Below are positions 55,929 through 59,580 of a stretch of 64,000 bases of DNA, piece by piece (within the stretch, counting starts at the first letter, position 1; each line of letters begins with the position of its first letter). This stretch comes from Nitrospinia bacterium (GTDB lineage Bacteria; Nitrospinota; Nitrospinia; Nitrospinales; JAJDAT01): NCBI GenBank assembly GCA_029261715.1, contig JAJDAT010000016.1, positions 301,885 to 365,884 of the forward strand, given 5' to 3'. The translations under genes and the position numbers were made by a program. The notes below the pieces were generated by a model. It was not told the DNA's origin. It made no database searches and was given only the letters and a program-made list of their open reading frames with translations.

Positions 55929-57743
55929 TTAGATCATTCCAACAGGACTTTGGTAGGATTCCCGCCGTTGGTCGGGCTTGAGATATAGTTGGGTGAGATT
56001 ATTGGTTTTAAATTTGTCTATATAAAGAAAGATATATTCTCGGACGCAAGTTCTAAGATCCCATTTTGAATCGTGATTACGTTCAAATTCTTCAAATACT
56101 TCTAGAGCTTCTGAGATTCCCAACCCACCTTCTGCCGTGAAGTAGTAATCTAATGCAAGATCCCATTCCGGTTTTTTATAGAAATTGACTTTATATTTCT
56201 CCGGCTCCATAGCCACCGGACTAAATCTCCCTAACACAAAAGTCATAAAACCAACTGAATGAATATTTTCCTTATTTTCATCTAAAAACTTTTTGCTGTC
56301 GTCCGCTTCTTGTAAAGTTTCTCCTGGAAACCCAAAAAATCCCATGCAGTGGTTCCAAATCCCAAATTTAGCCGACATTCGAAGGTTAGTTCGAATGGCG
56401 TCTAAATTTGTCGCTTTATCCATTAAGTTAAGAACCCTCTCGTTTCCAGACTCATAGCCAAAATGTAAATATCTACACCCAGATTCAGCAGCGTCTTTCC
56501 AAACTTCGTCATCTAAAAGAGTCTCTTCAAACCTCATATGAGTTGTCCAAGAAATATCTAATTTCTCTTCAATAAGCCTTTTGGATAACTTTCTAAATAA
56601 CGCGGGTGGATATGATTCATCTGTAAAATGGAAATGACGATTGCCGTATTTCTCTTTTAAGAAGCGGATTTCATCGATGGCCATCTCAACTTGTTTAGTT
56701 CGGAATCCTTCTACGTAACCTTGGAAATGATCACAGAACGTGCACCTTCCCCAGTAACAACCACGAGTAGCTAAGTATGGCAAAATTAATTCTGGTACAA
56801 AGTACTTGTCTAGCGGTAAACCGTCAAAGTCTGGAGGCGGCAGTTTCGCCATATCTTCAGCGCATACTTTTTTATTTGCTCTAATTTCTTTGCCATCCCT
56901 ATAAATTAAGTTTGGCAAAGAGGATAAATCTTTTTCGCCTTTTTCAATCGAGTTCACCAACTCTAAAAATGCGTTCTCTCCCTCATAGACAATGACAGAG
57001 TCATATAACTTAAATATTTCTTCATTTTTTACTAACTCATCCCTTAATCGAGTGACAATGTTACCGCCAATACAAATGTGAATATCAGGGAACTGTTCTT
57101 TAATCAATTTGCAAAAAGTGAATGTTGGAATCAGTTGTTTTTGTTGAACAATAGAAATCCCGACAACACCTGGGGTATTTGCTTTCAATTCAGGTTCAAT
57201 TAAAAAACGATATACATCTCGATATACATTTATTTGTTCGTCATCTAAAGCTTCTATAATCTCCGAAGACATAAATGGTTTATAAACGATATCGGTTTCA
57301 ATCGGCGGAAAGCAAATTTGAGCGGGATAATACCCAAGTGAAACCACGGACATGATTTCGTGAAGGGAATTGTTAGCCCATTCTAATTTATCGATTTCAT
57401 AAAAATCCTGACTTCTAAGAATTGCTTTTGCTTTATAAGCTTTTTGAATTAATTCCTGAAAGAACTCGTCCGTACAAGCAGAAAGTTGGGCCTTTAATTC
57501 GCTTTCTTCTTGGTCTAGGGTTTGAACTTCTTCCAGTCTTTGTAAGTGCCGAAGCTCAAAAGCGATCCTTGTCTGCACATGACGCAAAAACACTTCCCCA
57601 AACATCATGTCGTACATTTCGACATTAATATCCATTTGGGTTACATCGTGACCAGCTGGTCTTAACACGGATGTCAAAGCTGGCAAACTTAAATAAGGCT
57701 CCGATGGTAACCAATCTGGCGGAAATAAAAGCGTCACTTTCAT
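55929..57743 (-). CDS. B12-binding-domain radical SAM enzyme (paralogue 2), non-canonical CX4CX2C cluster motif
   Basis: The N-terminus MKVTLLFPPDWLPSEPYLSLPALTSVL is a cobalamin-binding-like Rossmann start. The radical SAM core has ATRGCYWGRCTFCDH. It resembles the RiPP-maturation/B12-rSAM class with a GC(W/Y)WG...CTFC context. Confidence 0.85.
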   Translation of the reverse strand: MKVTLLFPPDWLPSEPYLSLPALTSVLRPAGHDVTQMDINVEMYDMMFGEVFLRHVQTRIAFELRHLQRLEEVQTLDQEESELKAQLSACTDEFFQELIQKAYKAKAILRSQDFYEIDKLEWANNSLHEIMSVVSLGYYPAQICFPPIETDIVYKPFMSSEIIEALDDEQINVYRDVYRFLIEPELKANTPGVVGISIVQQKQLIPTFTFCKLIKEQFPDIHICIGGNIVTRLRDELVKNEEIFKLYDSVIVYEGENAFLELVNSIEKGEKDLSSLPNLIYRDGKEIRANKKVCAEDMAKLPPPDFDGLPLDKYFVPELILPYLATRGCYWGRCTFCDHFQGYVEGFRTKQVEMAIDEIRFLKEKYGNRHFHFTDESYPPALFRKLSKRLIEEKLDISWTTHMRFEETLLDDEVWKDAAESGCRYLHFGYESGNERVLNLMDKATNLDAIRTNLRMSAKFGIWNHCMGFFGFPGETLQEADDSKKFLDENKENIHSVGFMTFVLGRFSPVAMEPEKYKVNFYKKPEWDLALDYYFTAEGGLGISEALEVFEEFERNHDSKWDLRTCVREYIFLYIDKFKTNNLTQLYLKPDQRRESYQSPVGMI

Positions 57744-57777
57744 AATTAATTCCTCAATAAAAAGAGAACGTATGAGC

Positions 57778-59580
57778 TTAAGCTTTGCATAATATTTTTT
57801 CGTCCTCTCCTAAATTTGGTTTTTTACCGGTTAATGGATCTTTACCATATCGGTCCAAATATAGCAGAAAATGTTCTCTAGGCATTACACCCCAGAGTTT
57901 AATGCTTTCAAAAGTTTCTTCGGCCATTTTTATACACTTATTATTTAATTCAATCGCTTCTTGCCGTGACATTCCAACATTTATCTCAAAATCTAAGTTC
58001 ATAGCCAAATCAGAATCTGGATCACTTATAATCTTAGAAATGGAATACTTCTCTGGATATTGAAAAACACTGGAGTCGCGATTTAAGAGAAAAACTCCTG
58101 GGCCAAAAGAATGAATATTTTCAATATTATCTTTTAGAAAATTGATGGTATCCATAGCTTCATCGCGCGTTTCCGTTGGAAATCCAAAAAATAAAAAAGT
58201 ATGATTCCAAATACCAGCATCGCTACTTTTTCGCAACGAGTCTCGCTCGATTTCCTGGTTAGCGCCTTTATCTATAAGAGATAAAACTCTATCGTTAGCG
58301 CTTTCCATACCAAACATCAAAAAAATGAATCCCGCTTCTTTCATTTTACGAAACAGCTCTTCATCCATAACTTTTTCAAACTTTAGTAGGGCTAAAGCTT
58401 TCAAGTCAAACCCTTGCTCCAAAATCTCGTCAGAAACATCATTTAAAGAATGAGGAGAAACCGCTTCATCTGAAAAAGTAAAATATTTGGTTTTATACTT
58501 TTCCGATAACATTTTAAGTTCGGAAACCATCTGCTTGGTTTTTTGCTTTCCATAACGGTGTCCATAAACATAACTATGAGTACAAAAAGTACATTTTCCC
58601 CAATAGCACCCTCTACTTTGCAATACAGGTAAAATAGGATATGGGGAAAGATATTTCTCCATGGGAAGCCCATCAAACGTTGGCGATGGTAATTCTTCAA
58701 AACGAAGTTCAACGCGATCTTTATTAAAGCGGACTAGTCCATTATCCAAATAAACTAGGTTTGGAGCAGTATCTAATGGTTCTTGATTCTTTAATCGAGT
58801 CAAAAGCTGGTGCAGAGGTTCTTCACCTTCAAAGGTAATTATCGAATGGCAAAAATCTTCAAAAAACTCAGGCTGTTTTTCTAACTGCCCTCCTGCAACG
58901 CTAAAGATAGGACCGCCCAACACGATATGAAGATGTGGATATTTCTGTTTAAGCATCCGAGCTAAAGTCAGCCCTGGAATAATCTGAGAAATTCCAATAA
59001 TGGAAATTCCTACAACATCATATTCTTCCCATTTTTCGGTTCCCAATAGAAATTTATCGTAAAGCCATATAAAGGGATTTGTTTCATCGTCTTTAGCCGC
59101 AAAACGAGCTCTTCTCGAAGACTCCTCCGCCCGGGTGCCGCTTTCAAACGTAGAGAGACTTAAAATAGATGGGGCATATGCATCTGACACCAGTTTTAAA
59201 GCCGATTTAATGACCATATCCGCTTGCTGGTAGATATCAAAATTGAAAAATAAGTCAGGCGTCCGCATCACCTTTTTAGCTTCTTCTACCTGAGAGATAA
59301 TCTGCTCTGAAAACTTTTTACCTGTAGCCAAAACATCCATCAAAGATTTATCTTTAAATGAGAGCGACGGCTTAGCGCGAATTAAATCAATCTTTTTATC
59401 AAGGCGAACAACCGCTTCGTCCAATACTGGCTTGGACAAGAACAGGTCGTATGATTCAATGTTAAAATCCCTTTGTTTTACATCCCAACCTTTTGATCTC
59501 AAATATGAAGTCAAATATGGCGTACTCAAATACGGTTGGGAGGGATACCACTGGCAAGGAAATATTAATAGCGTTTTCAT
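57778..59580 (-). CDS. B12-binding-domain radical SAM enzyme (paralogue 1), non-canonical CX4CX2C cluster motif
   Basis: MKTLLIFPCQWYPSQPYLSTPYLTSYL and QSRGCYWGKCTFCTH. It is collinear in domain order with the downstream paralogue. Confidence 0.85.
   Translation of the reverse strand: MKTLLIFPCQWYPSQPYLSTPYLTSYLRSKGWDVKQRDFNIESYDLFLSKPVLDEAVVRLDKKIDLIRAKPSLSFKDKSLMDVLATGKKFSEQIISQVEEAKKVMRTPDLFFNFDIYQQADMVIKSALKLVSDAYAPSILSLSTFESGTRAEESSRRARFAAKDDETNPFIWLYDKFLLGTEKWEEYDVVGISIIGISQIIPGLTLARMLKQKYPHLHIVLGGPIFSVAGGQLEKQPEFFEDFCHSIITFEGEEPLHQLLTRLKNQEPLDTAPNLVYLDNGLVRFNKDRVELRFEELPSPTFDGLPMEKYLSPYPILPVLQSRGCYWGKCTFCTHSYVYGHRYGKQKTKQMVSELKMLSEKYKTKYFTFSDEAVSPHSLNDVSDEILEQGFDLKALALLKFEKVMDEELFRKMKEAGFIFLMFGMESANDRVLSLIDKGANQEIERDSLRKSSDAGIWNHTFLFFGFPTETRDEAMDTINFLKDNIENIHSFGPGVFLLNRDSSVFQYPEKYSISKIISDPDSDLAMNLDFEINVGMSRQEAIELNNKCIKMAEETFESIKLWGVMPREHFLLYLDRYGKDPLTGKKPNLGEDEKILCKA

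Follow-up and report, generated by a model that had tools for sequence, protein, structure and literature searches.

OxsB-like cobalamin-dependent radical SAM enzymes conserved in Nitrospinales, with a possible role in the nitrite oxidoreductase system

Locus and gene features

Two neighbouring minus-strand genes, rsamA and rsamB, were analysed in a 64,000-nucleotide stretch of a Nitrospinia bacterium genome (the window). They encode proteins of 600 and 604 aa and are separated by exactly 34 nt. Open reading frames confirmed the sizes, spacing and N-termini given in an earlier sequence-only reading. The features of the locus are as follows.

57778..59580, (-): rsamA, 600-aa class B (cobalamin-dependent) radical SAM enzyme, orthogroup A (ORF and Pfam)
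58582..58614, (-): rsamA [4Fe-4S] motif RGCYWGKCTFC (C325, C330, C333; translation)
55929..57743, (-): rsamB, 604-aa class B radical SAM enzyme, orthogroup B (ORF and Pfam)
56733..56765, (-): rsamB [4Fe-4S] motif RGCYWGRCTFC (C329, C334, C337; translation)
57751..57755, (-): rsamB Shine-Dalgarno GAGGA, 7 nt before the ATG (sequence)
59589..59597, (-): extended -10 box TGgTATTAT, 8 nt upstream of the rsamA ATG (sequence)
59649..59782: 67-nt tandem direct repeat, two copies 87% identical, between divergent promoters (repeat search)
59819..59846, (+): predicted sigma-70 promoter TTGACA-16-TATAAT of a divergent NHL block (12/12 consensus)
59943..64000, (+): divergent syntenic block (Pfam)

In the 34-nt gap, the search for promoter-like sites gave no match, and the Shine-Dalgarno sequence of rsamB implies, as far as sequence can indicate, translation from a transcript shared with rsamA. 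The rsamA start has no Shine-Dalgarno sequence and is probably leaderless or near-leaderless. A TGnTAnnnT box is kept 7–10 nt before the ATG in orthologous loci L011–L014, L019, L024, and L025. The two genes are probably co-transcribed from this extended -10 promoter beside the rsamA start codon.

The 67-nt repeat is unique in the genome and has no Rfam match. Two congeners have a single diverged copy, where the TTG ORF is interrupted. Judged by these comparisons, the repeat is a recent local duplication and not a precursor gene. The divergent block encodes a secreted NHL propeller (730 aa), a 172-aa secreted protein with no Pfam match, an Hpt protein (100 aa), and a multihaem cytochrome c whose gene runs past the end of the window. 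Its promoter is conserved across the order. In 13 of the 15 loci compared across the order, the block keeps its synteny with rsamB whether or not rsamA is there; family f3, which is without rsamA, is among these. In several genera the block and the pair are not linked. It is regarded here as context to the pair only. Cobalamin salvage and assembly genes (CobQ, CobS, CobU-BluB, CobD, and CbiB, all above cut-off) and a Btu-like importer are encoded in the same window, which gives supportive context for cobalamin use.

Protein domains and cluster motif

Pfam Radical_SAM (PF04055) matched rsamA and rsamB with 62.4 and 52.6 bits (cut-off 29.5). B12-binding (PF02310) matched with 31.8 and 32.1 bits, which is borderline at a cut-off of 32.1. 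The proteins are 35% identical over 592 aa (BLASTP E 2e-109), far above chance. These domains and this identity support the earlier description of paralogous B12-binding radical SAM enzymes. In the family to which they belong, an N-terminal Rossmann-type B12 domain is split by a ~130-aa helical insert and followed by the radical SAM barrel. The AlphaFold2 model of rsamA (pLDDT 84.3, pTM 0.87) includes the beta-alpha-beta core and is closest, by fold, to cobalamin-dependent radical SAM structures. OxsB was the best match by sequence (E 1.8e-7), profile (E 2.9e-21), and Foldseek (E 6.9e-13, TM 0.48), and the profile alignment runs from its cobalamin domain through the barrel. MgmA (9ccb) was second-best in profile and structural comparison. 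Homology and the predicted fold thus identify both proteins as OxsB-like cobalamin-dependent (class B) radical SAM enzymes.

Both translations contain RGCYWG(K/R)CTFC, that is C-x4-C-x2-C, as had been reported. The three motif cysteines are the sole invariant cysteines in 28 paralogues from six genomes and are also unchanged across 80 diverse relatives, so no alternative Cys triad, a possibility raised by the earlier reading, is available. The spacing had been presented as a distinguishing novelty. It is real, yet not new: it is invariant in a clade of 2,146 protein clusters at E<=1e-30. In OxsB (PDB 5ul2_A), SRGCDYSRCTFC aligns with the query motif SRGCYWGKCTFC, and CX4CX2C is common to both. 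Use of CX4CX2C by OxsB is stated in a review (PMC9204698).

Phylogeny and distribution

The pair represents orthogroups A and B of five ancient paralogues (A–E) conserved across Nitrospinales. Members were found in 54 of 61 Nitrospinota genomes, with 3–7 matches per genome (mostly 4–6), and all five orthogroups each follow the species tree. A groups with C and B with D in separate deep clades, which does not fit the description of the pair as tandem paralogues in the sense of a local duplication. rsamA orthologues are ~70% identical in Nitrospinales families f1, f2, and f4 and 62% identical in f5; none was found in f3. rsamB orthologues are 69–77% identical in all Nitrospinales examined, including Nitrospina gracilis, 61–73% identical in Nitrospira, where they stand in tandem with D, and 67% identical in anammox Loosdrechtia and Scalindua. 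In a GTDB-wide scan, orthologues of B, D, and E at 50–75% identity were confined to Nitrospinota, Nitrospira/Nitrospirota, and anammox genomes; identity to B, D, and E in all other phyla was 25–42% at most.

Nitrospinales, Nitrospira, and anammox Planctomycetes are the lineages with a common periplasmic nitrite oxidoreductase (NXR). Eight of 71 Nitrospirota genomes encode B, D, and E, and all five with detectable NxrA are among them; NxrA was found in none of the 62 rSAM-negative Nitrospirota genomes. Among 101 Planctomycetota, B/E-type genes occur in four genomes, and these same four have the closest NxrA (67–100% identity). At least ten Planctomycetota with NxrA homologues at 57–66% identity lack these rSAMs, as does one Nitrospinota genome with a 41–43% identical homologue. 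The rSAMs are therefore not a general requirement of NxrA-type enzymes. Conversely, family f5 has A, B, D, and E, and NxrA was undetected in two of its MAGs; NxrA often fails to assemble, for example in the genome under study.

In a cross-phylum tree, transfers are confined to Nitrospinota, Nitrospira, and anammox lineages. On phylogenetic grounds, the family belongs to the inherited core of Nitrospinales, and its repeated inter-phylum transfer involves almost only Nitrospira and anammox Planctomycetes. This pattern parallels the published history of NXR (PMC3578206).

Linkage to NXR genes

In three Scalindua genomes, the gene immediately downstream of nxrA belongs to orthogroup E. In two Scalindua loci (L084 and L087), the genes just after nxrA (1,830 bits to PDB 7b04_B) encode, in order, rSAM-E, a NapG-like ferredoxin, Mrp, and MoaA. 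In five Nitrospirota genomes, rSAM-E is inside a conserved NxrC/chaperone/NapG-like cluster. The array begins with ZnF, NapG-like, TorD-like chaperone, NxrC, and rSAM-E genes and continues with a membrane protein, TPR, NHL, NxrC-like, and two cytochrome c genes. The published annotation of N. moscoviensis has the same array, and the rSAM is transcribed there. In a cultured-Nitrospira dataset, the rSAM gene is labelled "conserved protein of unknown function". In three Nitrospinales genomes, D, at 7–12 kb from the nxr operon, adjoins a NapG-like ferredoxin gene; such a ferredoxin recurs next to both D and E. E is not beside NXR genes in two anammox genomes. A and B were never next to nxr genes in any genome examined, and their link to NXR therefore rests on paralogy and phyletic pattern. 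The sharing of the family with Nitrospira and anammox bacteria in particular, together with its linkage to NXR clusters, narrows the substrate question considerably.

The link to NXR may be coincidental, with another housekeeping target (RNA, a ribosomal protein, or another respiratory complex) and sharing through gene exchange and niches. Conserved neighbours do vary by orthogroup: TPR and MidA-like methyltransferase genes for C, AspRS nearby for D, and a cupin for E in Nitrospinales. The f5 genomes, with rSAMs and undetected NxrA, count on the same side. So do the hundreds of Nitrospina proteins that are closest to Nitrospira, Kuenenia, or Methylomirabilis (Lücker et al. 2013, PMC3578206); since the lineages have so many other genes in common, co-occurrence could reflect another shared trait. 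However, two phyla independently show E linked to NXR genes, each with its own gene order, the NapG-like ferredoxin is beside both D and E, and the phyletic pattern within Nitrospirota is nested. Coincidence is thus considered unlikely.

Candidate substrates

The earlier reading found no precursor, lipid, or phosphonate gene flanking the pair, and neighbourhood comparison bears this out. No lipid, isoprenoid, quinone, or phosphonate gene is conserved beside any of the five orthogroups. A phosphonate-like operon in the window is ~45 kb from the pair and is not syntenic with it in other genomes. The short TTG ORFs of the repeat and a 24-aa ORF (55827–55901), previously named as candidate precursors, do exist in the sequence, yet even congeners do not conserve them, and no small ORF around the pair is conserved across genera. 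Neither A nor B has a PqqD/RRE domain, and PF05402 had no match genome-wide at E<=0.1. A linked RiPP precursor was rejected on the basis of the unconserved ORFs and the missing RRE/PqqD match. No protease or exporter is linked to the pair. A search for leader peptides gave no Nif11 match, and the sole NHLP match (26.9 bits; cut-off 50.9) is ~66 kb outside the window on the same contig.

Maturation in trans of RiPP precursors encoded elsewhere, as by proteusin-type B12 C-methyltransferases, is nevertheless suggested by several relatives. TIGR03975 and ApyD are among the top NCBIfam matches. A C-terminal PqqD/RRE domain is found in 21 of the 53 nearest ~700-aa relatives, and A+C, B+D, and E fall among RRE-type proteins in a joint tree. 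The weak NHLP-leader-like match would also fit. Against this, rsamA and rsamB score 109.4 and 119.5 bits to TIGR03975, far below its cut-off of 281.85, and the RRE and precursor searches above count on the same side. The ~70% identity and strict orthology across the whole order are unlike patchy RiPP clusters, and the cross-phylum orthologues are embedded in respiratory gene clusters. This alternative is judged improbable.

A non-protein substrate of nitrite oxidisers and anammox bacteria, such as an NXR cofactor (molybdopterin or haem), a quinone, or a membrane lipid, could undergo methylation or another cobalamin-radical reaction. The best curated matches include the PhpK P-methyltransferase, BzaD, HpnJ, HpnR, and BchE, and a nucleotide is the substrate of OxsB, the nearest solved relative. 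Scalindua rSAM-E adjoins the cofactor-maturation genes for MoaA and an Mrp-type Fe-S carrier, and the NXR structure paper describes open pyran rings in both pterins. A–E also lack the RRE of their peptide-modifying relatives. However, curated small-molecule families are missed widely (97–123 bits; cut-offs 450–650), no lipid or related gene is conserved nearby, and the nearest sequence relatives handle peptides, as they are RRE-fused. A substrate of this kind is somewhat unlikely.

Proposed role

The preferred reading is cobalamin-dependent radical methylation of a component of NXR-centred machinery, to which we assign a probability of roughly 0.4. The pair more likely represents maturation enzymes of nitrogen-cycle machinery than antibiotic-peptide enzymes. 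A [4Fe-4S] cluster held by CX4CX2C would reductively cleave SAM to a 5'-deoxyadenosyl radical, which would take hydrogen from an unactivated carbon. The methyl group would then come from methylcobalamin, with a second SAM recharging the cofactor. Methylation is not assured, since OxsB does not transfer methyl groups although it is the closest relative with a solved structure.

The substrate would be a conserved cellular component of the NXR system common to the three lineages and not a linked RiPP precursor. The likeliest candidate is a protein that would receive its modification in the cytoplasm and then be exported; Mmp10 and MgmA, which act on methyl-coenzyme M reductase, provide the analogy. 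The RRE-fused near relatives (21 of 53) and MgmA as second structural match lean toward a peptide or protein. Each paralogue would serve a different site or subunit, and the NapG/MauM-like ferredoxin beside D and E is a plausible dedicated reductant. The more specific proposal is that NXR subunits or dedicated cytochrome, NHL, or chaperone partners bear radical B12-dependent C-methylations or similar modifications, introduced in the cytoplasm by a dedicated set of three to five CX4CX2C paralogues transferred in parallel with NXR. This is speculative and rather unlikely. Counting against methylation, no methylated residues are described in the structure paper on Kuenenia NXR; the mass spectrometry in that paper could not, however, have found them.

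Significance

NXR makes nearly all nitrate on Earth, and its maturation is poorly understood. We know of no radical SAM or B12-dependent step linked to NXR so far. A search of the open literature found no paper combining "radical SAM", nxrC, and Nitrospira. New here are the A–E family, its orthologues common to NOB and anammox bacteria, and the position of E within NXR clusters. A B12-radical SAM family restricted to these organisms and found in NXR clusters provides a testable hypothesis of hidden modifications on NXR or its partners. The family could help explain the investment of marine nitrite oxidisers in cobalamin acquisition and synthesis. If the proposed role is true, it would be a nitrogen-cycle counterpart to the modifications of methyl-coenzyme M reductase, and nitrite oxidation would be directly cobalamin-dependent. 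The analysis also defines a large OxsB-like clade with CX4CX2C, as yet uncharacterised (>2,000 clusters at E<=1e-30), in which the other members mostly carry a fused RRE.

Comparison with known systems

In the NCBIfam/TIGRFAM profile search proposed by the sequence-only reading, both proteins were below every curated subfamily cut-off. The PhpK family of P-methyltransferases (TIGR04479), B12-rSAM methylases, is the best match for rsamB (123.3 bits; 97.5 for rsamA; cut-off 600). TIGR04014, a profile of B12-rSAMs that modify methyl-coenzyme M reductase, gave 55.3 and 49.2 bits (cut-off 360).

OxsB (oxetanocin A biosynthesis; 5ul2/5ul3/5ul4) shares the class and the CX4CX2C motif and is ~18% identical to the query. 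It differs in having an extra N-terminal domain and in catalysing ring contraction, not methylation. OxsB works with the HD-domain partner OxsA on deoxyadenosine phosphate, whereas the pair has no linked OxsA-like gene and no HD-domain gene among its conserved neighbours. The ~130-aa insert of the A–E B12 domain has no alignable OxsB counterpart.

The TIGR03975 rSAM_ocin_1 (PoyB-PoyC type) enzymes are alike in their ~600-aa architecture and split N-terminal B12 domain, and this family is the top or second NCBIfam match for both proteins, far below cut-off. The sequence-only reading ascribed to it a longer first Cys spacing. Unlike these and other RRE-fused B12-rSAMs, the pair has no RRE, NHLP/Nif11 precursor, or linked protease or exporter, and its distribution is that of a core genome, whereas RiPP maturases are accessory.

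Mmp10 and MgmA/QCMT are dedicated B12-rSAMs without an RRE that methylate specific residues of methyl-coenzyme M reductase. The pair differs from them in domain sizes, and no modified NXR residue is known. Mmp10 and MgmA genes are in or near the gene cluster of their target, a respiratory enzyme that defines its lineage. The likeness of rsamA and rsamB to Mmp10 and MgmA is an analogy of role, not family membership.

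Results

Two adjacent genes for B12-binding radical SAM enzymes, rsamA and rsamB, lie on the minus strand of the window, with a tandem duplication nearby:

57778–59580, minus strand: rsamA, ORF of 600 aa
55929–57743, minus strand: rsamB, ORF of 604 aa, 34-nt gap to rsamA
59649–59782: 67-nt tandem repeat (duplication) between the two divergent promoters

The ORFs, gap, N-termini and shared cysteine motif described in the sequence-only reading are all present. The proteins are 35% identical across 592 residues (E 2e-109), and each matches Pfam Radical_SAM, with the B12-binding domain borderline in both. 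The rsamB ATG is preceded by a GAGGA Shine-Dalgarno sequence 7 nt 5′. rsamA lacks a Shine-Dalgarno sequence, and an extended −10 box (TGgTATTAT; within 59578–59600, minus strand) ends 8 nt 5′ of its ATG. Such a box ends 7–10 nt ahead of the rsamA ATG in all inspected orthologues (loci L011–L025), including those of other genera. Together these features suggest a leaderless or near-leaderless bicistronic transcript, with leaderless rsamA mRNA conserved among orthologues. The 67-nt duplication may be a duplicated operator. Both copies contain the inverted repeat AACGATCACATCGTT, which is perfect in the distal one and carries a single mismatch in the proximal one; in congeners a single degenerate copy is present. 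Rfam gave no match to a riboswitch or known RNA upstream of the pair.

Both enzymes carry RGCYWG(K/R)CTFC, which is C-x4-C-x2-C. Its three cysteines are the only invariant cysteines among 28 paralogues from six Nitrospinota genomes, and remain invariant among 80 diverse relatives. By this conservation, the CX4CX2C spacing is genuine and constitutes the predicted working triad; the objection that another triad might be used fails. OxsB, which shares the motif, was both the top profile match (E 2.9e-21) and the top structural match (Foldseek E 6.9e-13; AlphaFold2 model, pLDDT 84.3, pTM 0.87). An exhaustive search returned 35,371 related cluster representatives, including 2,146 at E ≤ 1e-30, many of which align over their whole length with 30–40% identity. 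The OxsB precedent and these representatives mark CX4CX2C, at the level of sequence, as a hallmark of a large uncharacterized OxsB-like clade. It is not peculiar to this locus, as the earlier emphasis on its non-canonical spacing had implied. Neither enzyme fits a curated NCBIfam subfamily: every match scored far under its cut-off, the top ones being TIGR03975 (109–119 bits; cut-off 282) and PhpK (97–123 bits; cut-off 600). Two metagenomic proteins, P0148 (2,279 aa) and P0151 (2,331 aa), join a SPASM-type radical SAM module and four B12-binding radical SAM modules of the OxsB-like clade in one polypeptide.

The pair belongs to a core family found in 54 of 61 sampled Nitrospinota genomes, with 3–7 matches each (mostly 4–6) and six in the source genome. 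Among the nine Nitrospinota families compared (f1–f9), it is present in f1–f5 and absent in f6–f9. A maximum-likelihood tree resolved five ancient orthogroups, A to E, with A sister to C and B sister to D. Each roughly follows the species tree; a sixth paralogue, F, forms a long branch. Because rsamA and rsamB fall in separate ancient orthogroups, A and B, the adjacent genes are not a recent duplication, as the term tandem paralogues had suggested. In f3 (Nitrospina proper), no member of orthogroup A was found, and rsamB stands alone at the same position. The matches listed from a large homologue search with rsamB were dominated by Nitrospinota orthologues and included Nitrospina gracilis. In 4–5 Nitrospinales genomes, orthogroup C (source-genome contig C14, 305882–310464) forms a conserved unit on one strand together with genes for a TPR protein and for a protein of ~460 aa with a borderline Methyltransf_28 match (MidA/NDUFAF7-like), a further hint of a protein-modification theme.

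The sequence-only reading had found no standard precursor gene beside the pair, and this absence was upheld. A systematic comparison of small ORFs flanking the pair across 15 genomes revealed none conserved between genera; the only matches were frame shadows of the NHL gene or came in pairs from almost identical genomes. The whole source genome has no match to Nif11-leader or PqqD/RRE, and for NHLP one sub-threshold match far from the pair and none above threshold. That NHLP-leader-like match (C16:235825–235947, L066) belongs to an open frame of 121 aa, ~66 kb beyond the window, and scores 26.9 bits (cut-off 50.9). Both precursor candidates proposed earlier fail. The repeat encoding the TTG ORFs is unique in the genome, and in two congeners it is a single diverged copy with the ORF interrupted. 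The 24-aa ORF at 55827–55901 is conserved neither as peptide nor as intergenic DNA, even inside the genus. Paralogue F (691 aa; C14:330101–332176, L006) was considered as an in-genome RiPP reference and set aside: its winged-helix-like C-terminal tail is not called PqqD by Pfam, and no precursor ORF is evident nearby, its neighbors encoding a secreted protein of 189 aa and the ATPase of an ABC transporter. A lipid role is unsupported by reviews or NCBIfam lipid families. The nearest relatives outside A–E are mostly ~700 aa, and 21 of 53 have a C-terminal PqqD/RRE domain. In a joint tree with these relatives (FastTree, midpoint root, topology read without supports), the Nitrospinota groups occupy three separate positions. 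From this placement, the A–E lineage looks derived from peptide-handling enzymes, with loss of the RRE.

Across the order, the pair shares synteny with a divergent block, whose products are a secreted NHL propeller, a secreted protein of 172 aa (c3), two large multihaem cytochromes and, in some cases, an Hpt protein. The block promoter is a perfect TTGACA-16-TATAAT. No genes are conserved downstream of rsamB. An obligatory functional link between pair and block is weakened: c3 is restricted to the order and lies apart from the pair in several genera, f5 has the radical SAM genes without c3, and neither c3 nor the window's cytochromes have homologues in the NXR-accessory cluster of Ca. Nitrospira defluvii (NXR, nitrite oxidoreductase).

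The window also encodes a BtuF/D/C-like corrinoid importer followed by CobQ, CobS, a CobU-BluB fusion, CobD and CbiB (16295–26547); these five proteins all exceed NCBIfam cut-offs. Cobalamin supply for rsamA and rsamB is therefore plausible. These genes correspond to cobalamin salvage and lower-ligand assembly via BluB, which depends on oxygen; the organism has at least six B12-radical SAM genes.

One genome per GTDB species was pattern-scanned, and each protein at the resulting 79 loci was assigned to an orthogroup. Close orthologues occur in three groups of organisms only.

Close orthologues by orthogroup, organisms and identity
A, B, C, D, E: Nitrospinota, 73–100%
D: Nitrospira/Nitrospirota, 66–75%
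B: anammox bacteria (Loosdrechtia, Scalindua), 67%
E: Scalindua and another Planctomycete, 50–54%

Other phyla (Cyanobacteria/Melainabacteria, Myxococcota, Clostridia, Dehalococcoidia, Methanoperedenaceae and others) reach only 25–42% identity. Nitrospira loci have a tandem B-D pair, whose B is 61–73% identical to that of Nitrospinales. Downstream of this tandem (L090, L104, L110 and others) are a small conserved gene on the minus strand, a gene for a third radical SAM protein (~412 aa, CX3CX2C, weak DUF512 match) and one for a PhzF-family isomerase; L090 has a class I methyltransferase upstream. In a cross-phylum maximum-likelihood tree, B splits into Nitrospinales with Loosdrechtia versus Nitrospira with f5 Nitrospinota and Scalindua, and D and E are similarly mixed. 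As read from this tree, there were repeated transfers between phyla, confined to Nitrospinota, Nitrospirota and anammox lineages. Lücker et al. (2013, PMC3578206), who make no mention of radical SAM genes, inferred that these lineages had exchanged periplasmic NXR and accessory genes. The f5 copies of B, D and E (G012, G022; L032, L033, L038, L043) group with Nitrospira or anammox types, not Nitrospinales, which could reflect an unusual gene-transfer history or members that do not oxidize nitrite but keep the enzymes.

Co-occurrence with the NXR subunit NxrA was scored in 61 Nitrospinota, 71 Nitrospirota and 101 Planctomycetota genomes, which are phylogenetically non-independent. B, D and E occur together in 8/71 Nitrospirota and E alone in 1/71. 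NxrA was detected in five Nitrospirota genomes, all among those eight, and in 0/62 genomes lacking the radical SAM genes. The four Planctomycetota with ~590–630-aa B/E-type genes are the four with the closest NxrA (67–100% identity), and at least 10 others have NxrA homologues of 57–66% identity without B/D/E-type enzymes. The latter (G137, G159, G169, G188, G193, G200, G201, G218, G226, G227) have large genomes, up to 8 Mb, and are presumably not anammox bacteria; their identities are to Scalindua NxrA. In Nitrospinota, f6, f8 and f9 have neither the enzymes nor NxrA, and f7 has a divergent NxrA-like gene and no enzymes. Both f5 MAGs have the enzymes, and neither NxrA nor the 172-aa neighbor was found in them. 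NxrA is often missing at contig breaks, including in the source genome. The family thus follows nitrite-oxidizer and anammox lineages, not all NxrA homologues.

Orthogroup E is embedded in NXR gene clusters. Scalindua sediminis and a second Scalindua encode, in order, a Zn-finger-like protein, NxrA, rSAM-E, a NapG/MauM-like ferredoxin and an Mrp-type Fe-S carrier. MoaA follows in S. sediminis; the second contig ends earlier. Scalindua NxrA matches Kuenenia NXR subunit A (PDB 7b04_B) over its full length (1,830 bits), and in a third Scalindua genome rSAM-E immediately follows nxrA. In N. defluvii, a same-strand array ~20 kb from nxrA2 encodes a Zn-finger-like protein, NapG-like ferredoxin, TorD-like chaperone, NxrC and rSAM-E, then a membrane protein, TPR, TatA, NHL protein, NxrC-like protein, 157-aa protein and two cytochromes c. 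Four more Nitrospirota genomes share this conserved array. The Nitrospira orthologue is transcribed, orthology there (N. moscoviensis) being assigned from annotation, length and gene order, not sequence. In three genomes from two Nitrospinales genera, D is 7–12 kb away from the nxr operon. The gene divergent from Nitrospinales D has, as its C-terminal half, a NapG-like ferredoxin 42% identical to that of Scalindua. This ferredoxin thus recurs next to both D and E. In the source genome, nxrA is present only as N-terminal fragments at two contig ends (C47:177490–178538; C32:2–205), probably due to collapsed duplicate copies. Its upstream genes, for a Zn-finger-like protein, a TPR protein and a 620-aa protein of unknown function, are shared with nxr loci of other Nitrospinales.

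Discussion

The tentative main reading, given a probability of roughly 0.4, is that these genes represent an OxsB-like B12-radical SAM family restricted to nitrite oxidizers and anammox bacteria and associated with the NXR system. Methyl transfer would be their chemistry because it is the commonest in the class, with OxsB an exception. A protein substrate would be expected because relatives bear an RRE and MgmA is the second-best structural match. The NXR link of E and D may extend to A and B, given that all are paralogues, that B and D stand in tandem in Nitrospira and that the phyletic pattern is shared. This functional reading is less secure for A and B taken singly than for E. No methylated residue is reported in the NXR structure paper, whose mass spectrometry consisted of peptide fingerprinting that allowed for fixed modifications alone. 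The substrate, left open by the sequence-only reading, can be narrowed by the position of E inside NXR clusters and by the phyletic distribution of the family to an NXR-system hypothesis that is specific and apparently undescribed in the literature. Under that hypothesis, A–E would modify a component of the NXR-centered machinery, much as Mmp10 and MgmA act on methyl-coenzyme M reductase.
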